This document shows positions 8,537-61,023 of a DNA stretch of 64,000 nucleotides, in pieces (within the stretch, counting starts at the first letter, position 1; each line of letters opens with the position of its first letter). The notes below the pieces were generated by a model, which saw nothing but the letters and a program-made list of their open reading frames with translations, had not been told where the DNA came from and searched no databases. Source of the stretch: an archaeon (lineage in GTDB: Archaea > Nanobdellota > Nanobdellia > Woesearchaeales > JAADFO01); contig JBDRHG010000004.1 of assembly GCA_043817075.1 (NCBI GenBank), forward strand, positions 45,767 through 109,766, in the 5' to 3' direction. The position numbers were made by a program, and so were the translations under genes.

Positions 8537-8669
8537 TCTGAAAATGGGTTTCATACCCCGTTCTTCAGAGTGTGGTCCATTTTCAGACCAGAAATTCCAC
8601 CTGTTCGATGCGAGGAGCAGGATACCCTGACCTTATAGGTCGGGGTAGCTCCGAGCGGTGGAATTTCTG
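8537..8669. other. two adjacent perfect hairpins (possible small structured RNA or MITE-like palindrome)
   Basis: An 11-bp stem pairs 8537-8547 with 8577-8587 (tctgaaaatgg/ccattttcaga). A 13-bp stem pairs 8589-8601 with 8657-8669 (cagaaattccacc/ggtggaatttctg) and encloses further nested pairing (ggagc..gctcc, ccctgacc..ggtcgggg). No ORF. Confidence 0.3.
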
Positions 8670-33474: not shown

Positions 33475-34089
33475 TCAGACGAACTTTACGCTGGGCGCCG
33501 ATTCTGCTCCTTCCTGCGCTTCGAAGTATGTCCGTTGGTCAAAGCCGAACATGCCCGCGATGATATTGGTCGGGAAGCGACGCAGCTTGGCGTTGAGCGC
33601 CGTCACAGCGTCGTTATACCGCTTCCTCTCCACCGCGACCTTGTTCTCTGTGTTGGCGAGCTCGTCCTGCAGAGCCTGGAAGTTGGCCGTCGCCTTGAGC
33701 TGAGGGTAGTTCTCCACATTGATGTTGAGTCCGCGGAATCCCGTGGCGACCTGCTCCAGCTGGTTGGCGGCTGCCACCTTCTCGTCGACACTTCCGGCAG
33801 TGTCCCATGCCTTCTTGGCTGCTGCCGCCTGCGTCCGGAGCTCCGCTATCCTGGTCTGCGTGCCGGACTCGAATTCAGCCGCCCCTTTGACGGTCTCGAC
33901 GAGATTAGGGATCAGGTCGGCCCGTCGTTGATAGACCGTCTCGACCTGGGCCCATTTGTTGTTGACGGTCTCGTCAAGCGTGACCAATCCGTTGTAGACC
34001 GAGACCAGCCAGAGCAGCATGACGACCGCGATGATCGCGATCACGATGAGCACAATGGATCCGGTCCCTAGTGATTTTCCTTTTGCCAT
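33475..34089 (-). CDS. lemA: LemA family protein
   Basis: An N-terminal TM segment is followed by VYNGLVTLDETVNNKWAQVETVYQRRADLIPNLVETVKG...E..T...I..LR and ..YNDAV..LN..LRRFP.NIIAGMFGF, the canonical LemA sequence. ATG 34089 is preferred over the Arg-rich track extension. Confidence 0.85.
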   Translation of the reverse strand: MAKGKSLGTGSIVLIVIAIIAVVMLLWLVSVYNGLVTLDETVNNKWAQVETVYQRRADLIPNLVETVKGAAEFESGTQTRIAELRTQAAAAKKAWDTAGSVDEKVAAANQLEQVATGFRGLNINVENYPQLKATANFQALQDELANTENKVAVERKRYNDAVTALNAKLRRFPTNIIAGMFGFDQRTYFEAQEGAESAPSVKFV

Positions 34090-34091
34090 GA

Positions 34092-34355
34092 TCATCCCTC
34101 CGTATCTTTGCCCTTGCGGTCTTTCTTGGCCGCTGTCGATGTCTTCCCGCCGGCCTTGCGGAAGAGCGTGAGCACCTCTTCGCGGTCCAGCCACATCCCG
34201 CCGCAGCGGTCGCAGATATCGAGCACCGCGCCTGTCGGATGGCTCAGTTTCCGCATCCGGACGCCTGCGCATCGCGGACAGTTGAGCGGAGCCATCTGGA
34301 ATTCCTTTCCCCTCTTGTCCGTCCCCTTTTCATTACTTTTCTTCTTCAGCACCAT
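34092..34355 (-). CDS. TFIIB-type zinc-ribbon protein (zf-TFIIB-like)
   Basis: CPRC(x17)CDRCGGMWLDREEV matches the CxxC...CxxCGGxWLD zinc-ribbon family. An alternative ATG lies at 34295. Lys-rich termini. Confidence 0.6.
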   Translation of the reverse strand: MVLKKKSNEKGTDKRGKEFQMAPLNCPRCAGVRMRKLSHPTGAVLDICDRCGGMWLDREEVLTLFRKAGGKTSTAAKKDRKGKDTEG

Positions 34356-34382
34356 GATTCCACCTTTTCTTCGATATCTGTA

Positions 34383-35237
34383 TCAGAATCCTCCAGAGAA
34401 GCCGCCGCCTCCAAAACCGCCGCCACCGCCTGAGAATCCTCCTCCGAGGCCTCCCAATCCGCCGCCGGGACGAAATCCCCTTGAGAAGAGCAATGAGGCG
34501 GCGCCGATATAGATGCCGTCGTTCATCGCGCCCTTGTGGCCTTTCCTGCCGCGTCTGCTGACGCGACTGATGATGGTGATGAATACCATGAGGAACATGA
34601 GTCCCATGAGGCCTGCGAACTGGGGCGGAACCGGCGAGTCGGCATCTCCGGTGGCGATGCCTCCGCCTTCACGCAAGATGTCAGCATCATCTGTGCCGTC
34701 TATCACGCCGATGGCAGCATCGATTCCTGCTATCATTCCTCCTGAGAAATCCCCTTTCGAGAGCAAGGGCGCCATGCGGTCCCGAGACAGCCTGCCGAGC
34801 AGAGGTGTGTTGAGCACGTCTTCAAGGCCATAGCCGACCTCCCATCTGTAGACGCGGTCCACGGTGGCGAGCAGCAGGAGCACGCCATTGTCATTCCCTT
34901 TCTTGCCTACTCCGTTCTCCTCTGCGATGCGGAGCGAGTATTCTTCTAGTCCTTCATCCGGCGGGACGCTCTCCACGGTGAAGACCACCATCTGCACCGC
35001 GGTCCTGCTGTCGAGGTCCCGGAGTCTCGCTTCGAGGGTCGCTTTCTCCTGAGTGTCGAACACACTGGCGCGGTCTTCCACATATGAACGTACCACGACA
35101 TCCTCTTGGGCACTGGCGAACCCGGCAATAAGAGGCATCAACAGGAAAAGGAATGTGAGGGCTGCCATCGCTGGCAAGACCTGATGCGATTTCCTATCAG
35201 TTTTCGCATCAGGTCGTGGCTCTGCGCGGGTCGTCAT
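34383..35237 (-). CDS. TPM-domain (TLP18.3/Psb32/MOLO-1-like) protein with TM segment and Gly-rich tail
   Basis: Signal/TM segment, then YVEDRASVFDTQEKATLEARLRDLDSRTAVQMVVFTV.S, ..NGVLLLLATVDRVYRWEVGYGLE.. and a C-terminal GGGFSGGGGGFGGGGFSGGF. LemA-TPM pairing is a well-known conserved neighbourhood. Confidence 0.75.
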   Translation of the reverse strand: MTTRAEPRPDAKTDRKSHQVLPAMAALTFLFLLMPLIAGFASAQEDVVVRSYVEDRASVFDTQEKATLEARLRDLDSRTAVQMVVFTVESVPPDEGLEEYSLRIAEENGVGKKGNDNGVLLLLATVDRVYRWEVGYGLEDVLNTPLLGRLSRDRMAPLLSKGDFSGGMIAGIDAAIGVIDGTDDADILREGGGIATGDADSPVPPQFAGLMGLMFLMVFITIISRVSRRGRKGHKGAMNDGIYIGAASLLFSRGFRPGGGLGGLGGGFSGGGGGFGGGGFSGGF

Positions 35238-35363: not shown

Positions 35364-36506
35364 ATGGGAATCACGCTCACGAAATGCATCGACCGCGTGG
35401 TCATCGGAGGCCTCGTCGGCCTGCTGTCCCTGCTGCGCAGGAAGAAGATTGTCCCGACGCAGCCTCGACGGATCCTGCTCATCCAGTTATGGGGCATCGG
35501 TGAGACCGTCTGCGTTCTGCCCGCCCTCTTCCATCTGCGCAGGCATTTTCCGACGGCGACTATCGACATGCTCTGTACCCCGCGGAACAAGGCTGTCTTC
35601 TCAGGGAACAGAGACCTATCGGATGTCCATGTCATCGAGCCCGGCGCGAGAGGCGTCCTCGGCTGGGTGTTCTCAGGCGTCAGGAAGACCGGGCGCTACG
35701 ACGTCGTCATCGACATGGAAGAATATCTCAATGTCTCGGCTGTGCTCGCTTGGGCTTCAGGCCATGCGCTGATCGGTTATGCTCATGGGTTGCGCGGCAA
35801 GGTCTTCGACAAGACCGTCAAGTATCGCGACGACCAGCATGTGGTGCATACATTCGAGGACCTGCTCGTACCGTTGGGGATCACTGACCATGCTCATGCC
35901 CTCCCTCCTCTCAACTTTTCCGAAGCGGATCTGAGGGCGGCGAAGAGAGTCCTCGCCTCGGCAGGCGTCGATACATCCCGCTTCATCGTCATCGTCCCTG
36001 GAGCGGCCGAGACTGCTCGGAGCCGTATATGGCCCTGGAAACGCTTCGGATCGCTGGCACGAAAGCTCCATCGACAAGAAGACGTCACCGTCGTCGTCAC
36101 CGGCAGCAAGAGCGAACGTGAGCTGGCCGGCTTGGTCCAGACCGCGGCAGGGAAAGGGACGGTGAGCATCGCCGGTAAGCTCAACCTGACCGAGCTCTAC
36201 GCCCTCATCAAGCTCGCCTCCCTTGTCGTCTCAAACGACACCGGCCCGATGCATATAGGTGCTGCGATGGGCACACCGACCGTAGGTTTGTTCGGGCCGA
36301 ACCTGCCCACCCGTTTCGGCCCTTTCGGCGAAGACAATGTCGGCATCTATAAGGAGGGTTCCTGCCGTCTCTCACCCTGTCTCAATGTCCATCTCGGTCA
36401 GACCCCTGACTGCCTCTATCCGAAGAATAGCGCTGATTACCAGAAATGCATGAAGGCGATATCGGTCGACGACGTCCTCAAGGAAGCGAAACGTCTTCTC
36501 TCGTGA
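35364..36506 (+). CDS. family 9 glycosyltransferase (heptosyltransferase-like)
   Basis: ILLIQLWGIGETVCVLPALFHLRRHFP (GT9 N-terminal block) and the C-terminal LIKLASLVVSNDTGPMHIGAAMGTPTVGLFGP (the characteristic GT9 xNDTGPMHxAAAxGxP motif). Confidence 0.85.
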   Translation: MGITLTKCIDRVVIGGLVGLLSLLRRKKIVPTQPRRILLIQLWGIGETVCVLPALFHLRRHFPTATIDMLCTPRNKAVFSGNRDLSDVHVIEPGARGVLGWVFSGVRKTGRYDVVIDMEEYLNVSAVLAWASGHALIGYAHGLRGKVFDKTVKYRDDQHVVHTFEDLLVPLGITDHAHALPPLNFSEADLRAAKRVLASAGVDTSRFIVIVPGAAETARSRIWPWKRFGSLARKLHRQEDVTVVVTGSKSERELAGLVQTAAGKGTVSIAGKLNLTELYALIKLASLVVSNDTGPMHIGAAMGTPTVGLFGPNLPTRFGPFGEDNVGIYKEGSCRLSPCLNVHLGQTPDCLYPKNSADYQKCMKAISVDDVLKEAKRLLS

Positions 36507-36594: not shown

Positions 36595-37353
36595 TCAACC
36601 GTGATGCGTCGGCATATGCTTGAGGAAGTACGCGTGCAACTGTCCCACCTCTGCGAGTCTGGGCAGCACTTCGCGTTCCAGCGATCTGCACCCTGAGAAG
36701 AACGGCAATGCCTCGGGCGAGAATGCATAGATGCCGCTGTTGACCACGAGGGATCCTGCGGCCTTGGGCTTCTCGACGAATTCGACCACCATATCCCCTT
36801 CCACGACTGCAACGCCCATGCGCTCGGTCTGTTTGCTGGTGGAGAGCCCTACGGTGGCGAGCCTTCCGCTCGTCAGGTGGTTTGCGGCGAGCTTCGCCAG
36901 GTCCTCTTCGCATGAGAGGTCGCCGCTGAGCGCCAAGAACGGCCCCTCGAGCGCATCGCCTACCATCCGGATGGCATCGGCCGTTCCCTTTGACGCGATC
37001 TCCCTGACCATGCAATCCGGCCAGTGTTTATCCTGTCCTTTCGAGATCTCCTCCAGTGCTGGCGAGGTGTCGGATCCCTTCTCCACAGCGATGATGGCGC
37101 GCTTGACGCCTGCGCGGGCCAAAAGGGAGAGCTGTTGCGAGAGCAGACACTGCTTCCCTACATCCTTGGTCGCCAGCGGCACATGCGCGGAAGAGAGCAT
37201 GATGACTGCCTCCTCGATCCTTGGGGAGATGGCTTTCCGGAGCAGTGCCTCCATCGCTTGGCTTCGTGAGGGATATCTTGATGTCTCCACCACGCTGTCC
37301 ACGGCCGCCAACAGGTCGCTGGAGATGGATATGGCGATCTTCTCTTTTGGCAT
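36595..37353 (-). CDS. ribbon-helix-helix (CopG/NikR-like) domain fused to a sugar-nucleotidyltransferase-like domain lacking the GxGTR signature
   Basis: N-terminus KIAISISSDLLAAVDSVVETSRYPSRSQAMEALLRKAI fits an RHH. The remainder aligns by eye to NTP_transferase (GTADAIRMVGDALEGPFLALSGD..HL.SG.LATVGL....TERMGVAVVEGDMVVEFVEKP.....LVNSGIYAFSPE). The expected LAGGxGTRL is replaced by MLSSAHVPL. Confidence 0.65.
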   Translation of the reverse strand: MPKEKIAISISSDLLAAVDSVVETSRYPSRSQAMEALLRKAISPRIEEAVIMLSSAHVPLATKDVGKQCLLSQQLSLLARAGVKRAIIAVEKGSDTSPALEEISKGQDKHWPDCMVREIASKGTADAIRMVGDALEGPFLALSGDLSCEEDLAKLAANHLTSGRLATVGLSTSKQTERMGVAVVEGDMVVEFVEKPKAAGSLVVNSGIYAFSPEALPFFSGCRSLEREVLPRLAEVGQLHAYFLKHMPTHHG

Positions 37354-37360
37354 ACTCGAG

Positions 37361-37459
37361 GTATGAAAAAGTATGAAATATAAACATTTCTATTCTTCAT
37401 CATATGGGTTCCTTTGAAGAAATATTTATAAACTCGACGGTAAATAGTAGTATGAAATG
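37361..37459. promoter_or_regulatory. divergent intergenic control region: 3 x GTATGAAA direct repeats plus a TATA box (aatatttataaa, 37421-37432)
   Basis: gtatgaaa occurs at 37361-37368, 37371-37378 (10-bp phasing) and 37450-37457; the last copy overlaps the gmhA ATG at 37457. The TATA-like box ends 25 nt before that ATG. Confidence 0.45.
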
Positions 37460-38044
37460 GTACTACCAGACAAGAAAAAGGTTGCTGAACAGGTCAAGAG
37501 CTCGATTCAGGTCATAGATCAGTCCGAGAATCTGCTTGTGGAATCGCTTCCTGCGATCGCAGAGGCTTGCATCAAGGCCATAAGCGGCGGCGGCAAACTG
37601 CTCATCGCCGGCAACGGCGGATCGGCCTCACAGTCCATGCACTTCTCGGCTGAATTGACCGGGAGATATCTCCGAGACCGCAAAGGCCTGCCATGCCTCG
37701 CGTTGACCACGGACTCGGCGATGATCACGGCCTGGTCCAACGACTCGAGCTTCGATGAGGTGTACTCCCGTCAGGTCGAAGCGCTGGGGAAGAAAGGCGA
37801 CGTGCTCATCGTATTGACCACCAGCGGCAACTCCGAGAACATCGTCCAGGCGATCGAGACAGCCAAGGACCTGGGGCTCACGACGGTGCTGTTCACCGGC
37901 AAGGGCGGCGGAAAGGCGCACGGCATGACGGATATCGAGCTCAATGTCGATGACACCGCGACGCCACGCGTGCAGGAGAACCACCTGCTCGCCTTGCACA
38001 TCCTCGCAGACCTCATCGAACAGTCCTTCGTGTCTCAGGACTAG
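37457..38044 (+). CDS. gmhA: phosphoheptose (sedoheptulose-7-phosphate) isomerase, SIS domain
   Basis: KLLIAGNGGSASQSMHFSAELTGRY...R.GLPCLALTTDS...TAW.ND..F..V..RQV.ALG.KGDVLI.L.TSGNS.N matches GmhA. Followed by the other heptose pathway genes. Confidence 0.85.
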   Translation: MVLPDKKKVAEQVKSSIQVIDQSENLLVESLPAIAEACIKAISGGGKLLIAGNGGSASQSMHFSAELTGRYLRDRKGLPCLALTTDSAMITAWSNDSSFDEVYSRQVEALGKKGDVLIVLTTSGNSENIVQAIETAKDLGLTTVLFTGKGGGKAHGMTDIELNVDDTATPRVQENHLLALHILADLIEQSFVSQD

Positions 38045-38136: not shown

Positions 38137-39108
38137 ATGGAACGACTCAGAGGAATCATCAACAACTTCTCCGATGTCAGCGTATTGGTCATCGGAGACA
38201 TCATGGTGGACAAGTACATCTGGGGTGATGTCCATCGCATCAGTCCAGAGGCCCCGGTGCAGATCGTGAATGTTCGGAAGGAGAGTCATTCTCCTGGTGG
38301 GGCAGCCAACACCGCGGCCAATATAGGTGCGCTGGACGGCAAGACTTTTCTCGTCGGTGTCATGGGCAACGACGCGGCCCGTACCACGCTGAACGTCATC
38401 CTATCCGAGCGGGGCGTAGAGACCAAAGGGGTCATCATCGATCCCGCCAAACCGACCACCCAGAAGGTACGCGTCGTGGCCCAAGGTCAGCAGTTGCTCC
38501 GTATCGATTACGAGAAGTCCGAGTTCATCTCGGGAAAGGACGAGAAGCGCGTGTTAGACTATGTGAAGAGGACCCTTCCGAAGGTCAACATCGTCGTCAT
38601 CTCCGATTATGCGAAAGGGCTGGTCACCGAGAGCTTGATCCGCGGCGTCGAGAAGCTCGCAGTCCAGGAGAAAAAAATGGTGATCATCGATCCCAAGCCC
38701 ACGCATCATGTCCGCTACCAGAACGCATCTCTCATCACGCCGAACCTCAAAGAGGCTTTTGGCATGGCAGGTATTCCCTATTCAGACAAGGATGATGTGG
38801 TCAAGGTCGGCAAGATGCTCCTCGAGCGAACCCAGAGCAATCTGCTCATAACGCGGGGCGCACAGGGAATGAGTCTGCTGCTCAAGGACGGGACCGTCTC
38901 CCATATCCCCACGATGGCCAGGGAGGTGTTCGATGTGACCGGCGCAGGGGACACCACGATCGCTGCTCTCGCTCTCGCGCTAGGTGCCGGTGCCACGTTC
39001 GAGGATGCCGCCACCATCGCCAACTACGCGGCCGGCATCACCGTCGGCAAGATCGGGACTTCGACAGTCTCGAGACCAGAATTGCTCAGGGGGGTCGAGA
39101 GACCATGA
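38137..39108 (+). CDS. hldA: D-glycero-beta-D-manno-heptose-7-phosphate kinase (RfaE/HldE domain I, stand-alone)
   Basis: Ribokinase/PfkB fold: VLVIGDIMVDKYIWGDV.RISPEAPVQIV......PGGAANTAANI, and the C-terminal DVTGAGDT anion-hole motif. Confidence 0.85.
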   Translation: MERLRGIINNFSDVSVLVIGDIMVDKYIWGDVHRISPEAPVQIVNVRKESHSPGGAANTAANIGALDGKTFLVGVMGNDAARTTLNVILSERGVETKGVIIDPAKPTTQKVRVVAQGQQLLRIDYEKSEFISGKDEKRVLDYVKRTLPKVNIVVISDYAKGLVTESLIRGVEKLAVQEKKMVIIDPKPTHHVRYQNASLITPNLKEAFGMAGIPYSDKDDVVKVGKMLLERTQSNLLITRGAQGMSLLLKDGTVSHIPTMAREVFDVTGAGDTTIAALALALGAGATFEDAATIANYAAGITVGKIGTSTVSRPELLRGVERP

Positions 39109-39641
39109 GAGCGGTCTTTCTCGACAGGGACGGGGTCATCAACGAGGACCATGGCTACATCCATAAGGTCGAGGACCTCGAGATACTTCCCGGTGTCATC
39201 GACGGGCTCAAGCTGCTCCAGCACATGGGGTTCGTGCTCATCATCGTCACCAACCAGTCCGGTATCGGTCGGGGCTTCTATACCAAAGAGCAGTATGACC
39301 TATTCCACACCGAACTCCTCAAGCGGCTCGGGAAAGAAGGTATACAGATTGACAAGACCTATATGTGTCCACATCAACCGACGGATGGATGCGATTGCCG
39401 CAAGCCATCACCCAAGCATGCCGAGGATGCTGAACAGGAGTTCGGCATATCCCTCGCAGATTCCTATATCATAGGGGATCATGCATCCGACATCGGGTTC
39501 GGCAGGAATTCCGGCATGACGACCGTCCATATCCTCACCGGCCATGGGAAGAAGCATGGGGATATCGAGGCAGACCACCAATCGGAGGATTTCGAAGATG
39601 CAGTCGCATGGATCGAGCAGATCGAATTGCAGAAAGCTTAA
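39105..39641 (+). CDS. gmhB: D,D-heptose 1,7-bisphosphate phosphatase (HAD, GmhB-type)
   Basis: AVFLDRDGVINED.GY......E.LPGV...LK.L...GF.LIIVTNQSGIGRG..T......H......L...G......Y.CPH.P...C.CRKP and ..IGD...D. This includes the GmhB zinc-binding Cys motif. ATGA overlap with the kinase gene. Confidence 0.88.
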   Translation: MRAVFLDRDGVINEDHGYIHKVEDLEILPGVIDGLKLLQHMGFVLIIVTNQSGIGRGFYTKEQYDLFHTELLKRLGKEGIQIDKTYMCPHQPTDGCDCRKPSPKHAEDAEQEFGISLADSYIIGDHASDIGFGRNSGMTTVHILTGHGKKHGDIEADHQSEDFEDAVAWIEQIELQKA

Positions 39642-39645
39642 ACCG

Positions 39646-40107
39646 ATGGATGCCTTGCCTGCGATCTGCAGGCGTCTCCGTAGCGAAGGCAAACGCATCG
39701 TGACGGCCAACGGCAGCTTCGACCTGATGCATGCCGGTCATCTCGCCTTCCTCGAGGAGGCCGCGCGTCAAGGGGATGTCCTCGTCGTCGGTCTCAACAG
39801 CGATGCGTCGATTCGCAGCTACAAACGTGGCCGTCATCCGCCTCGTCCCATCATCGCGGAAGAATTCCGTGCAGCCATGATCGCCGGCCTCTCCTGCGTC
39901 GACTTTGTCACGATCTTCGATGAGACTGTCCCGCTGCATTTCCTCGAGAAGGTCCATCCTGATGTGTTCTGCAACGGCGAAGAGTATGGTACGGATTGTA
40001 TCGAAGCGCCGTTGCTCAAGGAGATGGGTGCGCATCTCCATCTCATACCCAAATATGCCGGGCTCTCGACAAGCAATATTCTGAGAAAGATCCTACGCGG
40101 ACGATGA
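39646..40107 (+). CDS. hldC: heptose-1-phosphate adenylyltransferase-like cytidylyltransferase-fold protein (RfaE/HldE domain II, stand-alone)
   Basis: KRIVTANGSFDLMHAGHLAFLEEAARQGDVLVVGLNSDASIR..K (HxGH nucleotidyltransferase motif, RfaE domain II-like). ATG 39646 is preferred; the track start at 39544 overlaps gmhB in another frame. Confidence 0.82.
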   Translation: MDALPAICRRLRSEGKRIVTANGSFDLMHAGHLAFLEEAARQGDVLVVGLNSDASIRSYKRGRHPPRPIIAEEFRAAMIAGLSCVDFVTIFDETVPLHFLEKVHPDVFCNGEEYGTDCIEAPLLKEMGAHLHLIPKYAGLSTSNILRKILRGR

Positions 40108-40122
40108 TTGCGTACGGTACAG

Positions 40123-40827
40123 TCATCGTTTGAACTTGTAGCGGACGATGAGCCAGATCATGACGAGGCCGAGGGTAAAAGCCTTCCACATCGAGCCGGT
40201 GATCTTCGATTCCCCGATTCGGCCCCGGTAGTTGACCGGGATCTCGATGCACCTAAGCCCGTTCTTGATCGCCAGGATCATGAACTCCGGCGAGAAATGG
40301 CTGGTGCCGACAGAGAACTTCTTCTGGATCTTCTTGAGTGCAGGGCGCTTGATGAGCTTGAAGGTGCATCCTACATCCGTCAGGCATGGTCCGTTGTGCC
40401 AATACTCCATGAGCTTTGCGACGAAGACGTTGCCGAGGCGCAGGAACCAGTTCATGTTGGCGTTCGACCAGATGCACTCCTTGGATGTCCTGGTGCCGAA
40501 CACCACGTCGAACTCTCCGGAGTAGAGAAGCAGTTTGGTGATATCATCGGCCAGGAACGTGCCGTCGGGCTCGACCGTGATGATGAGATCGCCTTTGGCC
40601 TCTGCCATACCTCGCCGCAACGCCCAGCCGTATCCTTGCCTCGTCTCCTTGACCACTCGCGCCTTGGTCTTCTTGGCCTCTGTTGCGGTGCCGTCCGTCG
40701 AGTTGTTGTCCACGACGATGATCTCATCTGCCACGCCGGTGGCAAAGAATTCTCCCACTGCTTTCTTGATGTTCTTCCCCTCGTTATACGCGGGGAACAC
40801 CACTGAGACTTTCTGGTTCTTGTACAT
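40123..40827 (-). CDS. family 2 glycosyltransferase (Dpm1/GtrB-like polyprenol-phosphate glycosyltransferase)
   Basis: VSVVFPAYNEGKNIKKAV.EF......DEIIVVDNNSTDGTA..A and ..TVEPDGTF.. (DxD-like). Confidence 0.85.
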   Translation of the reverse strand: MYKNQKVSVVFPAYNEGKNIKKAVGEFFATGVADEIIVVDNNSTDGTATEAKKTKARVVKETRQGYGWALRRGMAEAKGDLIITVEPDGTFLADDITKLLLYSGEFDVVFGTRTSKECIWSNANMNWFLRLGNVFVAKLMEYWHNGPCLTDVGCTFKLIKRPALKKIQKKFSVGTSHFSPEFMILAIKNGLRCIEIPVNYRGRIGESKITGSMWKAFTLGLVMIWLIVRYKFKR

Positions 40828-40860: not shown

Positions 40861-41979
40861 CTATTCGAGCAATCCTTTCTCCTGCAGCTCCGAAGTGGCC
40901 TTGTCGACCAGGTCTTCGGCCTCCTGGCCCTTGGACCAAGCGATGAGCTCGGCCATGCCATCAGAGAAGGAGACCTTAGGATCGAAGCCAAGCTTATCCT
41001 TGATCTTGCTGATGTCTGCGAAGCAATGCCTGACATCCCCTTTCCGGAAATTGCCGGTGATCTTGGGTCTGATGTCTCCATCTTTGCCATAGAGCTTAGC
41101 GATGGTCTCTGCCACCTGCAGGATGCTGACCCGGTTGCCGCTGCCCACATTGAACACCTCGTCGTTTGCAGCCTTGGATCCCATGGCCAGGATATTGGCC
41201 TGCGCGATGTCATGCACCGAGACGAAGTCGCGTGATTGGTCGCCGTCCTCGAAGACCAGCGGCGGATTGTCGTTCTTGATCCTGCTCTGGAAGATGGCAG
41301 CGACACCGGTATAAGGATTATTGAGGCTCTGACGGGGACCGTAGACATTGAAATAACGTAGCGCCGTCGTCGGGATGCCATAGGCCGAGCCGACATTGAG
41401 ACACATGAGCTCCTGGTCCATCTTGGTCAGCGCATAGACAGAATTTATCTCCTGATTCTTGGTCTCTGGTGTGGGTTCAGGCGTGAGCACCATGCCGCAT
41501 AAGGGGCAATGCACTTCCCAGTCGCCGCCCTTCATCTGCTCCACAGGTCTGAGCGACGGTGACACCGGTCCGCAGGCCTTGCACACATAAGCGCCTTCAC
41601 CGTATGTCGACATGCTCGAGGCGACCACGACCTTCTTGATGTCGTGTTCTTCATTGGCCAGGACATCGAGCATATTCGCGGTGCCCATGGTATTGACCCC
41701 AACATATCGGGAAATCTGGTACATGCTCTGTCCCACCCCGACCATGGCGGCCTGGTGGAGGAGTATGTCGACATCCTGCATCGCGCTTTTGAGCGATGAG
41801 CGGTCCAGCACATCCCCTTTTATCAGCTCTGCTTCTTTATTGAGGTAATCCGGAGCGGCTTTGTGGACCTGCGGCTCGAAGTTGTCAAGGATACGGACAT
41901 CATGACCCTTTTCCACGAGAAGGTCGACGACAAATGAGCCGATGAATCCAGCGCCCCCCGTCACTAAAACGTGCGCCAT
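40861..41979 (-). CDS. NAD-dependent sugar epimerase/dehydratase (extended SDR) with an inserted Cys4 zinc-ribbon
   Basis: VLVTGGAGFIGS (Rossmann fold) and a YxxxK context (YALTK). An insertion YVCKACGPVSPSLRPVEQMKGGDWEVHCPLCGMVL carries two CxxC pairs. Confidence 0.85.
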   Translation of the reverse strand: MAHVLVTGGAGFIGSFVVDLLVEKGHDVRILDNFEPQVHKAAPDYLNKEAELIKGDVLDRSSLKSAMQDVDILLHQAAMVGVGQSMYQISRYVGVNTMGTANMLDVLANEEHDIKKVVVASSMSTYGEGAYVCKACGPVSPSLRPVEQMKGGDWEVHCPLCGMVLTPEPTPETKNQEINSVYALTKMDQELMCLNVGSAYGIPTTALRYFNVYGPRQSLNNPYTGVAAIFQSRIKNDNPPLVFEDGDQSRDFVSVHDIAQANILAMGSKAANDEVFNVGSGNRVSILQVAETIAKLYGKDGDIRPKITGNFRKGDVRHCFADISKIKDKLGFDPKVSFSDGMAELIAWSKGQEAEDLVDKATSELQEKGLLE

Positions 41980-43742: not shown

Positions 43743-44462
43743 CTAGAGCCTGAACCGCAGCCGCAGCACATAGGGTATCATCCTGATCTCCTGGATCGGC
43801 GAGAATGTCGTCTTCTCCCCTTCCCGCCATCTGACAGGAAGGGATCGTATACGAAAGCCCTTGCGTTGCGCTCTGATCAGCAGTTCGGCATCCCAGAACC
43901 AGCCCCGTCGGATGCGTCGGTCGTATCCCATCTCTTTCAACAGCGGGAAAAGCGCCTCTCGCCTGAACGCCTTGAATCCGCATTGATGGTCCCGCAGACG
44001 TGATCCGAAATACAACCGCAAGGCGGCGTTGTACAACACACTGATGGCCTTGCGGTCGGTCGACCGATAGGTCTTGCTGCGAGGATGATAGCGATCTCCG
44101 ATCGCGATATCATACCCCTCCTTCTCCACCGCATCGACAAGATGCTTCAGCGCCGATAGGTCAGTGGCGAGATCGGCGTCGAGGAAGATGACGGTGTCGC
44201 CTTTAGCTTTGAGCAGTGCCCTGCCGAGGTTCTCCCGACGTGACGGTCCGTTCTCGAATCGGATATACTTTATCTCAGGATGTTTCTCTGTCAGCCTTCT
44301 TGCGCGTTCCTCGGTCTTGTCCTTAGATGCGTCATCGACGATGAATAGCTCGAACTTCCCATCTCCGTCCCAGGAAGAGACGATGTCATGGACGGCTTTC
44401 GCATTCCTCTCGATGATGCGTTCCTCGTTGTACAGCGGTATGAATATGGAGCGCATGACCAT
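43743..44462 (-). CDS. family 2 glycosyltransferase
   Basis: SIFIPLYNEERIIERN......FELFIVDDASKDKT and ..FLDADLATD (DxD). Confidence 0.85.
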   Translation of the reverse strand: MVMRSIFIPLYNEERIIERNAKAVHDIVSSWDGDGKFELFIVDDASKDKTEERARRLTEKHPEIKYIRFENGPSRRENLGRALLKAKGDTVIFLDADLATDLSALKHLVDAVEKEGYDIAIGDRYHPRSKTYRSTDRKAISVLYNAALRLYFGSRLRDHQCGFKAFRREALFPLLKEMGYDRRIRRGWFWDAELLIRAQRKGFRIRSLPVRWREGEKTTFSPIQEIRMIPYVLRLRFRL

Positions 44463-44613
44463 TGCATGTGTGGTCTCCGGCCTTCTTTTATGCTTTTCCC
44501 TCATCGCCTGACCGGTCTCTCAATGCATCTTGCCATCCCATCGGCTTTTGCATCGGTTTTAACCACCATCCGGTCACTGAAACGGCGCTCCGCTCCACCT
44601 GGTCTGTGACCAA

Positions 44614-45419: not shown

Positions 45420-45453
45420 CTCTTACACGATAAATCTGCACGTCTTGATATCC

Positions 45454-46212
45454 ATGGCTAAAAAGAAATCCAGCACAAAGGAATCCGCCACACGCGCATC
45501 TGCACGCAAGAAGACCGGCACCCCTGCATTCTCATTCGTCATCCCTGCGCACAACGAGGGCGGCAACATAGCGAAGCTCGTGAAGGAGATCACTTCGGTC
45601 ATGAAGAATCTCAGGCAGACCTTCGAGATCGTCGTGATAAACGACAACAGCTCCGATGACAGTGAGGCTGTCATCGACCGTCTCGCAAAATCCGTCCCGA
45701 CCCTTCGGCAGATTGTCCGGCGCAACAAGCCAGGGGTGGGCTACGCCATCAAGACCGGACTTGCCGCGGCCAAGGGAGACCTCATCGTCACCCTTGACGG
45801 CGACCGTTCCCATGATCCGCATGAGCTCCCTCGCTTCCTGGCCAAGATGCCGAAGTATGACTTCGTCTGCGGATCACGCAGGGTTGATGGCGGCAAGGCG
45901 AGCATGACACTCTCCCGCATCCTGATCAGCGGCACATTCAACATCATCTTCCGCATCATGCTCGGCCTGCCGGTCAAGGACTTCACATCCGGCTATCGCT
46001 GTTATACCAAGGAGGTGCGCGACGCCATCATGCCTCTGGAGAGCACGGGTTTCGGCATCTACATCGAGATTCCCATCAAGGCCCACAAGAGGGGATTTTC
46101 CCTCACTGAGGTGCCTATCATCTACCATAAGCGTGAGGCAGGCAAGACCAACCTCAACTATTTCAAGCAAGGGCCCGAATACATCAAGGTCGCCCTCAAG
46201 AACATGTGGTGA
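45454..46212 (+). CDS. family 2 glycosyltransferase (Dpm1-like)
   Basis: FSFVIPAHNEGGNI......FEIVVINDNSSDDS and ..TLDGDRSHDP. ATG 45454 is preferred over the TTG at 45445. Confidence 0.85.
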   Translation: MAKKKSSTKESATRASARKKTGTPAFSFVIPAHNEGGNIAKLVKEITSVMKNLRQTFEIVVINDNSSDDSEAVIDRLAKSVPTLRQIVRRNKPGVGYAIKTGLAAAKGDLIVTLDGDRSHDPHELPRFLAKMPKYDFVCGSRRVDGGKASMTLSRILISGTFNIIFRIMLGLPVKDFTSGYRCYTKEVRDAIMPLESTGFGIYIEIPIKAHKRGFSLTEVPIIYHKREAGKTNLNYFKQGPEYIKVALKNMW

Positions 46213-49710: not shown

Positions 49711-50685
49711 TCAGTCACCCACATAAATAATTTTGCTTCCCTGCGGCTCGAACTGGAATTCGAACTCTCGCAGGTCAGAGAGCGCATCACGGACGCGTTC
49801 TTTTGCCTTGCCTGGAGCGTAGAACATCAGGAATCCACCCCCTCCAGCTCCGAGGATCTTGCCGCCGGTGGCACCGGCCTTGCGGGCCTTCTCATAGAGC
49901 GTGTCAATCTCGTCGTTGGATATGCCGCCGGTCAGCCCCTTCTTGAGCAGCCAATTCTCATGCAGCAGCTCCCCGAGCTGGTCGATCCTGTTGCTGTTGA
50001 GGGCATCCCTGGTCTGGATGGCCAGGTCTCGCATCTTCTTGAGCACCGGAAGCTTGTTCTTGGTCTCCTTCATCTGTTTTGAAAGGATCCCGCCGGCCTT
50101 GCGGGTGATGCCGGTATAGAACATCACCAGGTTGTCTTGGAGCTTGGCCTTCGTGTCCGGATCGCAGATGATGGGGTCTACGAAGACCGTCCCATCCGTA
50201 TTGAATTCGACATATTGCAGTCCGCCGAATGCCGCGATATATTGATCCTGCTTGCCGATGGGCTCGCCCACCACGTCGATCTCGATATGGCAGGCTTCTT
50301 CAGCCAGCACAGCCGCTGATTTGAAGTTACCGGAGAACGCATGGAGTGCATGCAGGAGTCCCACGGTGAACGATGATGATGATCCCAATCCTGTCCCCAT
50401 CGCAGGGATGTCTGCCACAGATGTGATCTCGACGCCTTTGGTGACGTCGGTCAGCTTCATCGCCTCGCGGATGAGCTCATGCTCGATATCATGGACCGAC
50501 TCGACATTCTCTGTCTTGGAATAGCTGATCCGGATATGATGGTCGAATTTCTTGTTCACCGTGATGTACATGTACTTGTTTATCGCGGTGGATACGACTG
50601 CGCCAGGTTCGTGCTGGTAGAATGCCTGGAGGTCCGTGCCCCCGCCGCAGAAACTGATGCGGAAAGGGGTTCTGGAGATGATCAT
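49711..50685 (-). CDS. hddA: GHMP-family sugar kinase, D-glycero-alpha-D-manno-heptose-7-phosphate kinase-like
   Basis: MIISRTPFRISFCGGGTDL..FY...GAVVSTAINKYMYITV and the GHMP motif PAMGTGLGSSSSF. Context lies between a SIS isomerase and a nucleotidyltransferase. Confidence 0.78.
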   Translation of the reverse strand: MIISRTPFRISFCGGGTDLQAFYQHEPGAVVSTAINKYMYITVNKKFDHHIRISYSKTENVESVHDIEHELIREAMKLTDVTKGVEITSVADIPAMGTGLGSSSSFTVGLLHALHAFSGNFKSAAVLAEEACHIEIDVVGEPIGKQDQYIAAFGGLQYVEFNTDGTVFVDPIICDPDTKAKLQDNLVMFYTGITRKAGGILSKQMKETKNKLPVLKKMRDLAIQTRDALNSNRIDQLGELLHENWLLKKGLTGGISNDEIDTLYEKARKAGATGGKILGAGGGGFLMFYAPGKAKERVRDALSDLREFEFQFEPQGSKIIYVGD

Positions 50686-51425
50686 GCTCGATTCTTGCGA
50701 GAGGAAGTGGAGTTTTTAAAGGTATCGAGGCGGGAGAACGTGCCTATGTCGTAGAAACGCTCCTTGGTGATGAAGGCCCTCATCTGTCCTGCCGCGATCA
50801 ATGTGGGGAAGATCTCGTTCTCGAGCGACAGCCGCTCCCGCACGGTCTCATCCTCCTGTCCAGGGACTGATTCCAGCACCTTCTTCTCGAAGGCGAGCAC
50901 GCCTGCCTCGACGAAGCCCAGTCCGGGGATGGCGCCGCTCTTGTCATACACCTTGACCAGGCTGTCCTCATCGACAAGGACATTGTTGACCACTTGGGTG
51001 TCCTTCTCATTGCCGTAGACGACCATGGTCCCTGTTGTGCCGCCCTTGACATGCGCGGCCCACAGCCCTTCATAATCCATGTCAAGATACGAGTCTCCAT
51101 ACGCGAGGATGAAGCGGTCGTCGAGCAGACTGGACGCGAGCAGGAGTGCGCCGCCGGTCCCCAACGGTTCGTCCTCCACAGAATACCTGATCTTTAACCC
51201 TTCCATATCCAGCCCGCTGCCGTCCCCGAAGAATTCCTCCACCATGGAGGAACGGTAGCCGGTGCACAGCACCACATCCCTGATGCCATGACGGTGCATC
51301 ATGCGCAGCTGATGGAGAAGGAAGGGTTTTCCATCGACTTCCACCATGGGTTTTGGGATCTGTTCGGTCAATGGACGGAGACGTGTGCCCAGGCCCCCGG
51401 CGAGGATCACGGCCTGCATGCTCAT
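50682..51425 (-). CDS. hddC: sugar-1-phosphate nucleotidyltransferase, heptose-1-phosphate guanylyltransferase-like
   Basis: MQAVILAGGLGTRLRPLTEQIPKPMVEVDGKPFL (intact GxGTRL...PKP signature). ATGA overlaps on both sides. Confidence 0.8.
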   Translation of the reverse strand: MSMQAVILAGGLGTRLRPLTEQIPKPMVEVDGKPFLLHQLRMMHRHGIRDVVLCTGYRSSMVEEFFGDGSGLDMEGLKIRYSVEDEPLGTGGALLLASSLLDDRFILAYGDSYLDMDYEGLWAAHVKGGTTGTMVVYGNEKDTQVVNNVLVDEDSLVKVYDKSGAIPGLGFVEAGVLAFEKKVLESVPGQEDETVRERLSLENEIFPTLIAAGQMRAFITKERFYDIGTFSRLDTFKNSTSSRKNRA

Positions 51426-54571: not shown

Positions 54572-55744
54572 TCAATTTTTCTTCATGAGCGACAATCTCT
54601 TGTCGATGCATGCCAACATCTCGCGCACCACATGCGGCCAGGTCAGTTCCCGTTTGATGCGTTGATGGGCCTGTCTTACCAGGCTCTTCGCGAACGAGGT
54701 GTCGTTGAGCAGGCTGGCGAGCTTGTCGGCGATATCCTTCGGATCGAGGGGATCGACCAGAAGGCCGGTCTTCCCGTCATGGACTGCATCTGGTATCCCG
54801 CCGGAATTGCCTCCGATGGTCGGTACGCCTGTGGATTGTGCCTCGACAAAGGAGATGCCGAAACCCTCGACGTCTGGTCGCTCGGTGATCTCGCGGCTCG
54901 CCATGATGAATGCGTCGGCCGCTCCGTACCAATGGGTCAGGTCTTCGTTCTTGACGAATCCCTTGAAGAGCACTTCCTCGTCCAGTCCCAGGTCCTCGGT
55001 GAGGTTCTGCAGTGCGCCCCGGTAGGGCCCATCGCCCACGATGGCATATGAGAACGGTTCTTTGACGAGCTCTTTGAGTCTCGGCAGGGATTTGATAACC
55101 ATGTCATGCCCTTTATAGTCGTCGAGACGGGAGACGGTAAGGATGACTTTTCGCTTGGGATTCAGACCCAGGTGCCGTTTCGCTTTTCCCTTGTCCATGG
55201 GTGAGAATGATTTCGGGTAGACGCCATTGGGGACGAAGAACACCTTCGATGCCATGACCCCGTCGCGTACCAGGATATCCCGGGTGAAATTGCTCACCGC
55301 ATATGTGCAGATGCTACGGTTGAAGATGGAGATGCGTACCCATCTCAGCAATTTCTTGATGCGCTTGACCATGGTCGATGTCGAGTCCATCACTTCGACG
55401 CCATGCGCCGTGACCGTATATCTTATCCTGAGCACCCATGACAGAAACCAGGGAACGATGCCGCACGGATACCACATATGCGTCATCACCAGGTCGGTCT
55501 GGCCTTTGACCAATCTCTTGGCGATGAGGTGTGTGGCGGAGAGTTCCCTGAATAAGAACCGGGGATTGATGCGGGTGATGGGCAGCTTTGTCGTCGCGTC
55601 ATATACCGCGTCTCCGGGCTCATGAGGGGTGATGACCTCGACGTCATGCCCTTGCTTCACCAGCTCGTGGGCGATGTCGGTCGAGTACTGTGACATGCCT
55701 CCGGGCATAGGCCGGAACTCGACAGTGTAGATCAGTATCCTCAT
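54572..55744 (-). CDS. family 4 glycosyltransferase
   Basis: MRILIYTVEFRPMPGGMSQY....A.EL.KQGHDVEVITP and ..EGFGISFVEAQSTGVPTIGGNSGGIPDAV. Confidence 0.85.
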   Translation of the reverse strand: MRILIYTVEFRPMPGGMSQYSTDIAHELVKQGHDVEVITPHEPGDAVYDATTKLPITRINPRFLFRELSATHLIAKRLVKGQTDLVMTHMWYPCGIVPWFLSWVLRIRYTVTAHGVEVMDSTSTMVKRIKKLLRWVRISIFNRSICTYAVSNFTRDILVRDGVMASKVFFVPNGVYPKSFSPMDKGKAKRHLGLNPKRKVILTVSRLDDYKGHDMVIKSLPRLKELVKEPFSYAIVGDGPYRGALQNLTEDLGLDEEVLFKGFVKNEDLTHWYGAADAFIMASREITERPDVEGFGISFVEAQSTGVPTIGGNSGGIPDAVHDGKTGLLVDPLDPKDIADKLASLLNDTSFAKSLVRQAHQRIKRELTWPHVVREMLACIDKRLSLMKKN

Positions 55745-59721: not shown

Positions 59722-61023
59722 CTACTTTTTGCGCCGTTCAGAGGCCAGATTGAGCAGTATGGTCTCTATCCGGTCTGCATAAGTGCGGTCGGTGATCTTC
59801 GCGTTCACGAAATCCTTGCCCGCTTTGGCCAGGCGGTCATGCATCGTCTTGTCCGTGGTCAATCTCTTGATATGCGATGTCAGCTTCGCGACGTCTCCCG
59901 GCGTGTAGAGCACCGCGGTCTTGCCGTCATCGAGCACTTCTTTTACTCCTGTCCCCTTTGACACGATCGCAGGTGTCCCCGATGCCAACGCCTCGAGCAC
60001 GGCGAGTCCCCAGGTCTGTTGGTCATTGGGGAAGATGAAGACGTCGGCGGCCGCATAGTAGTCAGGCAATTCGTCGTCCGGCACATAGCCTGCGAACGAG
60101 ACCTGTTTCTCGAGCCCCTCTTTCTTGACGAGTTGCTTTATATGCTGGAAATAGGCTGGATTGAGATGGCTGTCGCCGACGATGACGAGCCGCGTCCTCT
60201 TATCATCGAGGTTTCCGAGCGCGGAGACGACGTCCTCGTAACGGCGATGCGGCATGAAGAGCCCCACGCAGAGCAGCATACGTTCAGTCTGGCCGATGCC
60301 GAGCTTCTTGCGCACGCCCGTGCCGTCCCGATTCTTGAACTGTCCGACCTGAATGCCGCTACGCACGATCTCCGCCTTCTTGCCGTAGAATTCCTTGACC
60401 ATGCGTTGGTTCTTGGTGTCGAGCACCGCGACCTTGTCGATCCTCCTGGAGAGCAACCAGTCGAAGGAACGAAGTTTCCAGTTGGAGATTGCACGGAACA
60501 GCGCGAACGGGCCTTTGGCGTACTTGCCGCCGCCTTCCCCGTACGATGTCGAGGTCTTCTTGATCTCTTTCCAGGTGAACCAATGTGGAGGGTCGTTGCA
60601 CATCCACAACAGCGCGGTGTCTTTTCGCGCTCCCAGCACCCCGACCCAATGTGACGGATCATCCTGGACGAAGAGCGCGTCGAATCGGCCGGCTTTCCTC
60701 ACCATATGTCTCATGCGGCAGATGTCGAGCGTATGTTTGAGGAAGAACTCTGGGAACGGACCGCGTCGTCCGAGCGGCAGTTCGAGAGAACGCATATCGA
60801 GGTCTTTGGTGAGCTGTGGGAAGCATGATTCGCGCTTGAACTGCCGCGTGAACACGACGCATTCATGGCCGCGGTCATGCAGGTTCTTTGCCAGCTGCAG
60901 TATCTGACGGTCGGCGCCGCCTTCGAAGGTGAGCTTTGGATGGATGAATCCGACGCGCAGATGGCGCCCGCCCTGCTGTCTCTTCTCGGTCTTGGCGCCT
61001 TTCGCTTTCGTCTTTCCTGCCAT
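59722..61023 (-). CDS. family 4 glycosyltransferase
   Basis: LRVGFIHPKLTFEGGADRQILQLAKNLHDRGHECVVFT and the C-terminal ..FPNDQQTWGLAVLEALASGTPAIVSKGTGVKEVL. Confidence 0.8.
   Translation of the reverse strand: MAGKTKAKGAKTEKRQQGGRHLRVGFIHPKLTFEGGADRQILQLAKNLHDRGHECVVFTRQFKRESCFPQLTKDLDMRSLELPLGRRGPFPEFFLKHTLDICRMRHMVRKAGRFDALFVQDDPSHWVGVLGARKDTALLWMCNDPPHWFTWKEIKKTSTSYGEGGGKYAKGPFALFRAISNWKLRSFDWLLSRRIDKVAVLDTKNQRMVKEFYGKKAEIVRSGIQVGQFKNRDGTGVRKKLGIGQTERMLLCVGLFMPHRRYEDVVSALGNLDDKRTRLVIVGDSHLNPAYFQHIKQLVKKEGLEKQVSFAGYVPDDELPDYYAAADVFIFPNDQQTWGLAVLEALASGTPAIVSKGTGVKEVLDDGKTAVLYTPGDVAKLTSHIKRLTTDKTMHDRLAKAGKDFVNAKITDRTYADRIETILLNLASERRKK

Follow-up and report, generated by a model that had tools for sequence, protein, structure and literature searches.

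A ribbon-helix-helix protein with a degenerate pyrophosphorylase domain as a candidate repressor of heptose biosynthesis in DPANN archaea

The regulator gene and its two domains

We analysed a 64,000-nucleotide stretch of DNA from a woesearchaeal genome (GenBank assembly GCA_043817075.1, contig JBDRHG010000004.1, positions 45,767 to 109,766 of the forward strand), referred to below as the window, whose own numbering is used throughout. In it, a gene that we call the regulator, after its proposed role, lies beside a heptose operon and is divergent from the first gene of that operon, gmhA (Table 1). The database entry of its 252-residue product, NCBI MFH1590425.1, carries as its sole annotation 'sugar phosphate nucleotidyltransferase'. 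The translation begins MPKEKIAISISSDLLAAVDSVVETSRYPSRSQAMEALLRKAI and contains the strings MLSSAHVPL, GTADAI, LSGD, MGVAVVEGDMVVEFVEKP and VNSGIYAF.

For the N-terminus of the window protein alone, Pfam RHH_1, a ribbon-helix-helix (RHH) model, scored 18.5 bits on residues 8-41, slightly under its 20.5-bit cut-off, and the NCBIfam NikR N-terminal models matched residues 4-45 only, at ~2e-4 and far below their own cut-offs. At the family level, RHH_1 matched 63 of 140 members, the best of them at E=1.9e-7. A profile of the first 47 residues, built from 40 family members and searched against the PDB, matched E. coli NikR (1q5v, 8e-9), P. horikoshii NikR (2bj1, 1.5e-6) and CopG (6e-3), and an RHH antitoxin was also among the matches. 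The residues follow the RHH layout, namely the strand KEKIAISIS, helix A, the SRSQA turn with its conserved S29-R30-S31, and helix B. An AlphaFold2 monomer model built on 123 homologues (predicted local distance difference test score 92.4, predicted TM score 0.86) placed these helices at residues 12-23 and 30-42, left the N-terminal strand unpaired, and continued into a Rossmann-like alpha/beta domain, a layout that fits an RHH monomer joined to a nucleotidyltransferase. On the profiles and the model, we consider the assignment of the N-terminus to an RHH, specifically a NikR-like one, to be sound. The RHH presumably forms a dimer that is further oligomerised via the C-terminal domain. Proteins of the RHH superfamily are obligate dimers whose two-stranded antiparallel sheet reads repeated half-sites, and the recurrent, conserved half-sites described below are indirect support for such a dimer here.

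The rest of the protein was matched by Pfam NTP_transferase (PF00483) at residues 65-219 (E=4e-17). The match covers profile positions 28-188 of 245, so that the first 27 positions, including the G-loop, are unmatched. The best PDB matches of the model in Foldseek were the GDP-mannose pyrophosphorylases human GMPPB and Arabidopsis VTC1 (E ~1e-17, TM 0.72), with GMPPA (7d72 chains), the inactive sensor paralogue, also high among the matches, and a sequence search agreed. An earlier sequence-only reading of the window had taken the N-terminus for an RHH and the C-terminal domain for a nucleoside diphosphate (NDP)-sugar pyrophosphorylase fold, and had suggested AlphaFold as a check. Both assignments are thus borne out, and the model indeed shows RHH helices together with an NTP_transferase-type domain.

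Table 1. Features of the regulator locus and of the adjoining glycan-biosynthesis island (BRE, transcription factor B recognition element; GT, glycosyltransferase family)
Feature	Position	Strand	Basis
Regulator gene: RHH plus catalytically degenerate NDP-sugar pyrophosphorylase domain	36595..37353	-	Pfam, NCBIfam, AlphaFold2, Foldseek
NikR-like RHH DNA-binding domain (predicted), codons 1-45	37219..37353	-	profiles, AlphaFold2, conservation
Pseudo-NTP_transferase domain, putative ligand sensor, codons 46-252	36598..37218	-	Pfam, Foldseek, alignment
Predicted operator at the regulator promoter: TCATAC-N4-TCATAC, direct half-sites in 10-bp phase, between TATA box and ATG	37361..37376	-	
Putative TATA box of the regulator, TTTATATT, preceded by BRE-like AGAAATG, centred ~27 nt from ATG	37377..37384	-	read from sequence
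Putative TATA box of gmhA, TTTATAAA, preceded by BRE-like AGAAATA, centred ~27-28 nt from ATG	37425..37432	+	read from sequence
Predicted gmhA operator: GTAAAT-N4-GTATGA-N5-TACTAC, spanning the predicted transcription start and the gmhA ATG (37457)	37440..37466	+	
gmhA (sedoheptulose-7-phosphate isomerase, SIS_2), first gene of the divergent heptose operon, predicted target	37457..38044	+	Pfam, NCBIfam
Heptose-7-phosphate kinase (rfaE/HldE domain I), above NCBIfam cut-off	38137..39108	+	NCBIfam
gmhB (heptose 1,7-bisphosphate phosphatase, HAD-IIIA)	39105..39641	+	NCBIfam
Heptose-1-phosphate adenylyltransferase (rfaE/HldE domain II)	39646..40107	+	Pfam, NCBIfam
GT9 heptosyltransferase, convergent with the regulator	35364..36506	+	Pfam, NCBIfam
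GT2 (glycan island)	40123-40827		
NAD-dependent sugar epimerase/dehydratase (glycan island)	40861-41979		
Two further GT2 genes (glycan island)	43743-44504, 45445-46212		
GT4 genes (glycan island)	54572-55744, 59722-61023		

Predicted operator sites in the window and in related loci

The spacer between the divergent regulator gene and gmhA (37354-37456) is 103 bp long, and GTATGAAA occurs in this region three times (37361-37368, 37371-37378 and 37450-37457), with one other copy in the 64 kb. The octamer is expected 1.09 times per window, and four copies were reached in 1 of 100 shuffles; when the spacer alone was subjected to 20,000 dinucleotide-preserving shuffles, some 8-mer appeared at least three times in 74 of them. 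These coordinates agree with the sequence-only reading, which had described the divergence from gmhA across 103 bp and three direct repeats, two phased by 10 bp at the regulator start and one over the gmhA ATG. We can now add that the repeats appear to be half-sites of an operator conserved in ~90 genomes with proteins that share only 30-40% identity with that of the window.

At the regulator promoter, the minus strand reads TTTATATT-TCATAC-TTTT-TCATAC-N7-ATG. The window contains no other perfect tandem like this TCATAC-N4-TCATAC, an arrangement that recurs at the locus of a relative, P0002 (locus L004), and across the clade of degenerate proteins to which the window protein belongs (clade A). 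In the gmhA promoter, TTTATAAA-N7-GTAAAT-N4-GTATGA-N5-TACTAC, the gmhA ATG falls within the N5, and the third GTATGAAA copy forms the left half of the imperfect palindrome GTATGA-N5-TACTAC (37450-37466). Both TATA/BRE elements, which were read by eye and by comparison across loci, are arms of a 13-nt inverted repeat (I1), and related loci have a similar layout. A TATA box ~27 nt from the start codon points to an mRNA that is leaderless or nearly so, which would put the sites over the transcription start or immediately before it; both divergent mRNAs are probably leaderless. Beyond the regulator/gmhA spacer, no further operator copies above chance were found in the window, glycan island included. 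The fourth GTATGAAA copy (8549-8556, minus strand) stands alone as a half-site, without a nearby partner, where the DNA is apparently non-coding, and reading the spacer revealed no NikR-style N16 partner for the half-sites.

To collect related loci, we used a degenerate DNA pattern built on the RHH of the clade, which encodes K[IV]AI-N20-SRSQA[IM]E, and a few unrelated bacterial RHH genes were filtered out by HMM score. The collection comprised at least 119 loci from different GTDB species genomes, ~95 of them with the full-length fusion, which were read as 8-kb tiles uncentred on the gene; all locus counts given here are among the matches listed. Many loci are labelled 'uncultured Methanosarcinales', a label that comes from record titles and may be unreliable.

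Within the 120 bp upstream of the regulator, a layout recurs in which a TATA box is followed by phased TAATAC-N4-TACTAC-N4-TCATAC up to the regulator ATG, and ~100 bp further upstream the related loci have a perfect palindrome, GTATGA-N5-TCATAC. Half-sites were 30-fold enriched in the 200 bp upstream (11.7 per kb, vs 0.39 per kb in 626 kb of flanks). The perfect 17-bp palindrome was present upstream in 54/89 loci, and TCATAC ended 0-12 nt before the regulator ATG in 47/89. The palindrome lies ~8-12 nt after a BRE/TATA element (cgaaagaTTTAAATA on the strand of the divergent gene) in most loci, and its end precedes the called isomerase start codon by 1-6 nt in 24 of 56 loci and lies within 20 nt before it in 39 of the 56. 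Thirteen perfect palindromes fell outside the 200 bp directly upstream of the regulator. Eleven of these sit 2-32 nt upstream of a gmhA- or cupin-sized open reading frame (ORF), in loci where the regulator is further off or another gene is inserted; of the other two, one is so close to a tile edge that no ORF can be seen, and the last, in L102, follows the regulator on its downstream side at a distance of 71 nt from an ORF. The extended operator consensus is TAGTATGAA-N3-TTCATACTT, of which the 94 loci hold 69 perfect copies. We regard this conserved, predicted operator as the strongest evidence for reading the protein as a regulator. In the P0002 locus (L004:490-560), a perfect hairpin, gctaacc-ttttt-ggttagc (~L004:512-530), lies between the gmhA-like gene and the palindrome; it would sit in a ~70-nt leader, or alternatively the gmhA start is mis-called.

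The position of the sites also bears on the sign of regulation. Sites downstream of the TATA box and over the start occupy the classical position of archaeal repressors, which block polymerase recruitment there, and archaeal activators normally bind upstream of BRE/TATA. Lying between TATA box and start, the predicted sites should block RNA polymerase recruitment, which makes an autoregulated repressor most likely. Some archaeal regulators do act both as activators and as repressors, and activation by RHH proteins is known. With the sites of the window and of dozens of loci placed past the TATA box and across the predicted start, we nevertheless hold it very improbable that the protein is an activator of the heptose operon.

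Loss of the catalytic site, the fusion family and its gene neighbourhood

Residue statistics for clade A were taken from 123 non-redundant sequences. The LxGGxGTR-L/M signature with its catalytic Arg is absent from the window protein, where IMLSSAHVPL stands in its place, and the clade-A consensus at the former G-loop is LLLKGEHQ. The segment with the catalytic Lys (canonical residues 16-24, RPxTxxxPK; RPVTYEIPK in P0004) has no aligned counterpart in clade A. A Lys at position 63, found in 66% of the clade, is a possible substitute, the alignment being uncertain locally and around the lost G-loop. The second Mg-binding Asp of the C-terminal WxDxG is replaced by His250 (His in 98% of clade A), and the Trp position of WxD is Tyr248 in 92% of the clade and Pro in the window protein. 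In active enzymes, the sugar-phosphate pocket is marked by G-D, E-K-P, N-x-G-x-Y and the Glu of S-L-E. The window protein retains the residues of this pocket, D145, E194-K195-P196, N205/G207/Y209 and E226, and these are conserved in clade A as well (D145 98%, E194 89%, K195 93%, N205 94%, G207/Y209 100%, E226 98%). Two new near-invariant His residues, H57 (73%) and H250 (98%), occupy former catalytic positions. The RHH is the most conserved part of the protein, with K5, I6, A7, I8, S9, S29, R30, S31, Q32, A33 and E35 each conserved at 92% or more. The sequence-only reading had claimed that the catalytic loop was lost while the ligand-binding core was retained, and had named an intact catalytic site as grounds for giving the claim up; we found three catalytic elements gone and the pocket residues 89-100% conserved. 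Selective loss of the chemistry, with the pocket and the DNA-reading face kept, is the signature of an enzyme-derived sensor, although no proof that a ligand is bound.

These data bear on two rival accounts. One is that the protein is an ordinary sugar-phosphate nucleotidyltransferase with an irrelevant N-terminal extension, beside repeats that arose by chance in an AT-rich spacer. The source annotation says as much, and RHH_1 stays slightly below threshold on the single sequence. However, the protein lacks the catalytic motifs, its RHH reaches significance at the profile level and is its best conserved part, and the repeats are conserved and positioned in ~90 genomes. The present computations contradict this account, and we give it next to no weight. 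The other is that the protein is a ligand-independent RHH repressor, in which the dead domain either keeps two RHH dimers in position as an oligomerisation scaffold or offers pathway enzymes a surface to dock on. NTP_transferase domains are commonly dimers or tetramers, and the loss of the nucleotide-binding elements and the variable GTA base-contact motif would fit such a scaffold. It is harder to reconcile with pocket residues that are 89-100% conserved over 123 sequences otherwise only 30-40% identical, and with the near-invariant H57 and H250, which suggest a remodelled rather than a decaying pocket. We consider a pure scaffold unlikely.

The regulator at first looked like an orphan, since a word-indexed search returned only two relatives of the same architecture; an exhaustive HMMER search with the alignment of these relatives revealed that this was an artefact of sensitivity. 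At E<=1e-30 it yielded 229 clusters (50% identity) with hundreds of fusions, mostly from DPANN archaea, and nearly all of the top 150 clusters are 240-285 residues long and align from residue 1-3, so that the RHH is included. The many members named by a second search belong to Altiarchaeota, Aenigmarchaeota, Micrarchaeota, Parvarchaeota, Nano-/Woesearchaeota and a few Patescibacteria, and are annotated throughout as nucleotidyltransferases. The fusion is therefore, beyond what the sequence-only reading had described, a large family, in which many members have an intact active site. Among 269 members, GGxGTR and PKxL are both present in 73, only GG remains in ~105, and neither is left in ~85. 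Intact members are found in ordinary enzyme settings, P0165 directly before a phosphoglucomutase/phosphomannomutase (PGM/PMM) gene and P0178 inside a polysaccharide cluster. In a neighbouring clade that keeps LAGG, a UDP-GlcNAc 2-epimerase comes next, unlike in clade A. The DNA-facing strand residues are R-x-T-x-T in the wider family and K-x-A-x-S in clade A; in the NikR-DNA structure we take them to be R/T/T. A few members (P0248, P0257 and P0259) are labelled Patescibacteria/Magasanikbacteria, which would make the fusion common to DPANN archaea and bacteria of the Candidate Phyla Radiation, possibly by transfer.

GTATGA-type sites at the gene's own start were also seen outside clade A. The intact P0165 has GTATGA-N5-TATTAC 9 nt before its ATG (L130:5974-5990), and GTATGA overlaps the ATG of P0178 (L128:5990-6003) and of P0003 (L001:970-977). 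Autoregulation through the half-site may thus be family-wide. Intact members with the same RHH, one of them with a GTATGA-type site, suggest that the ancestral state was probably an enzyme plus repressor. The 73 canonical members with this RHH in ordinary enzyme contexts, and the intact one with a GTATGA-type site before its own ATG, would suit a bifunctional trigger enzyme in the manner of PutA or BirA, which would carry out nucleotidyl- or phosphoryl-transfer on heptose via a non-canonical His pair and regulate its own gene. For the window protein and its clade we see only a slim chance of this, as the G-loop Arg, the Lys and the second Mg-binding Asp are all gone, the operon has its own adenylyltransferase of a different fold, and the glycan island has another, intact NTP_transferase.

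Heptose genes accompany the regulator well beyond the window. A heptose-pathway or GT9 gene was present in the 8-kb tile in 84/94 clade-A loci, each from a different genome, so that the linkage to sugar-nucleotide genes suggested earlier as a check is indeed seen. Across 97 loci, homologues were found of GT9 (58, the conserved downstream neighbour), the kinase (46), GmhA (38), GmhB (34) and the adenylyltransferase (28). The upstream neighbour was divergent in 71/81 loci. Pfam analysis of this neighbour in 78 loci identified SIS_2/GmhA in 27 and a ~120-residue cupin of the lyxose/mannose-6-phosphate-isomerase type in 24, the remainder being GT2, PfkB, GT9, GHMP kinase, HAD and similar genes. 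As for the two relatives found first, P0002 is divergent from a SIS_2 gene and P0269 is clustered with GT9, NTP_transferase, HAD and SIS_2 genes.

The cupin neighbour (for example L010:4332-4718, and also in L013, L014, L021, L033, L034, L083 and L125) is of the Cupin_2 / Lyx_isomer / mannose-6-phosphate isomerase C-terminal type. At least 11 cupin loci (e.g. L010, L013, L014, L021, L033 and L034) have an HldE-type kinase and usually GmhB and/or the adenylyltransferase, with no SIS-type GmhA in the tile; in several others, including L023, L047, L095 and L125, the tile shows none of kinase, GmhB, adenylyltransferase and GmhA. It may be that the cupin acts as a non-orthologous sedoheptulose-7-phosphate isomerase.

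In the window, the mechanically called adenylyltransferase ORF starts at 39544 and would overlap gmhB by ~100 nt; its profile match begins only at residue 41, and the ATG at 39646, five bases past the gmhB stop, is the likelier start, giving a clean 153-residue product. The regulator stands at the edge of a glycan-biosynthesis island (35364-61023) that also holds a FemAB/GNAT-like gene. At 49711-51425 (minus strand) in this island, a GHMP kinase (best NCBIfam match HddA, heptose-7-phosphate kinase) overlaps an intact NTP_transferase (best matches ManC and HddC) that is 25% identical to the sensor domain of the regulator. Both members of this pair score below the curated NCBIfam cut-offs, and they may represent a second, GDP-alpha-heptose-type activation route beside the ADP-heptose genes. 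Just upstream of the island, at 33475-35237 (minus strand), lie a LemA-family gene and, after it, a TPM-domain gene whose product has a Gly-rich tail at its C-terminus; such membrane-associated pairs are common, and this one has no evident link to the regulator.

Proposed mechanism, known systems and implications

Taken together, we propose, with a probability of about 0.7, that the regulator is a one-component, autoregulated repressor of the heptose operon in which a dead pyrophosphorylase acts as the sensor of a heptose metabolite. The NikR-like RHH would bind the GTATGA/TCATAC half-sites between TATA box and start codon of both divergent promoters. Spaced by 11 bp between their centres, or by 10 bp as tandem copies, the half-sites would suit two RHH dimers on one DNA face, an arrangement known from Arc, MetJ and CopG. 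The C-terminal domain would hold the RHH dimers together, because nucleotidyltransferase domains commonly oligomerise. Occupied sites would block the recruitment of RNA polymerase and so repress both the regulator gene itself and the gmhA/hldE-kinase/gmhB/hldE-adenylyltransferase operon. The ligand of the dead domain would most likely be a metabolite derived from heptose, whether an NDP-heptose or a heptose phosphate, and its binding would couple DNA affinity to pathway output. The retained E-K-P lysine and sugar pocket suggest a sugar-1-phosphate moiety in the ligand, and the loss of the G-loop together with the variable G-T-A motif makes a bare heptose phosphate as plausible as NDP-heptose. 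End-product co-repression would be the simplest ligand logic for a biosynthetic operon, and induction by a precursor is possible.

Several observations weigh against this proposal or limit it. The TATA boxes and starts were read from sequence only. The gmhA operator of the window is a palindrome with two mismatches and is shifted ~10 nt downstream, and the window protein is itself an outlier of its clade, with the C-terminus KHMPTHHG vs GEYxH and T124 vs N. The G-T-A nucleotide-contact motif is variable in clade A, with T in only ~26%, which makes a nucleotide sugar less convincing as the ligand relative to a sugar phosphate. The pocket residues could be kept for folding or oligomerisation rather than for a ligand. 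Because the loci were found through an RHH-driven DNA pattern and read as 8-kb tiles, the locus percentages are approximate.

Among characterised proteins, the nearest solved RHH is that of NikR. E. coli NikR binds GTATGA-N16-TCATAC (PMC7055735), and its recognition of the same hexamer pair makes GTATGA more credible as an RHH half-site. NikR resembles the regulator in the hexamer GTATGA/TCATAC and in having the RHH before a C-terminal domain; the regulator would also share with it ligand binding and oligomerisation by that domain and the repression of a divergent or adjacent operon. It differs in its ACT-like nickel-binding C-terminal domain with a high-affinity Ni site, where the C-terminal 207 residues of the regulator have the NTP_transferase fold, in its N16 spacing, where we find N5 (one helical turn) or 10-bp direct repeats, and in its target, since NikR regulates metal uptake whereas the regulator adjoins sugar-biosynthesis genes.

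Reuse of a dead pyrophosphorylase as a sensor or regulatory module has precedents of the same fold in GMPPA and in eIF2B gamma/epsilon. GMPPA is a catalytically inactive paralogue of GDP-mannose pyrophosphorylase that senses GDP-mannose. However, it acts allosterically on GMPPB by protein-protein contact, has no DNA-binding domain and keeps more of the G-loop, whereas the output of the regulator would be transcription via the fused RHH. PutA likewise fuses an RHH to enzyme domains and autoregulates a divergent operon, and the intact members of our family resemble the PutA type. PutA, BirA and NadR are trigger enzymes of other enzyme classes, and with its catalytic residues lost the window protein would be a pure sensor, unlike PutA. 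RpiR/MurR (SIS domain), the ROK proteins NagC and Mlc, and SorC/CggR also combine a DNA-binding domain with a sugar-enzyme-derived domain for a pathway sugar phosphate, but they have helix-turn-helix DNA-binding domains and other enzyme folds, and they are bacterial and work on sigma-70 promoters. By these comparisons, we assign the regulator to neither the NikR type, nor the active NTP_transferases, nor the GMPPA type: its C-terminal domain and half-site spacing depart from NikR, three catalytic motifs of the active enzymes are missing, and its predicted output differs from that of GMPPA.

In the full-text literature we found no enzyme-derived sugar-sensor repressor with an NTP_transferase-fold sensor or an RHH. 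Nor did we find there any account of a regulator that combines RHH and pyrophosphorylase, or of how heptose synthesis is regulated in archaea. The clade-A regulators apparently form a family undescribed so far. We put at about even odds the broader proposal of an undescribed family of archaeal transcription factors with a NikR-type RHH and an NDP-sugar pyrophosphorylase domain, spread across DPANN archaea and a few Patescibacteria, that runs from bifunctional enzyme-repressors through to a pseudoenzyme clade, which would sense a heptose metabolite and feedback-repress (ADP-)heptose biosynthesis via GTATGAA-N3-TTCATAC. Since its members are annotated simply as nucleotidyltransferases, this annotation should be corrected.

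To our knowledge, almost nothing is known of transcription regulation in DPANN archaea or of the archaeal control of nucleotide-sugar supply for surface glycans. If the proposal is true, the protein would be the first regulator proposed for archaeal heptose or glycan precursor synthesis, and its regulon would be among very few that are readable in DPANN genomes. The locus offers a complete module, in which the regulator comes with an operator consensus, with two promoters as targets and with a small set of candidate ligands. As this module is replicated in ~100 genomes, any tractable member, or an in vitro system, could serve to check the predictions. ADP-heptose is an innate-immune agonist reportedly made across kingdoms (PMC11461863, PMC11573728), so that microbial control of its level would be of wider interest. 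The family would also illustrate how an enzyme turns into a sensor in nature, as the active sites that follow its one kind of DNA-binding domain range from intact through half-degraded to fully degraded.

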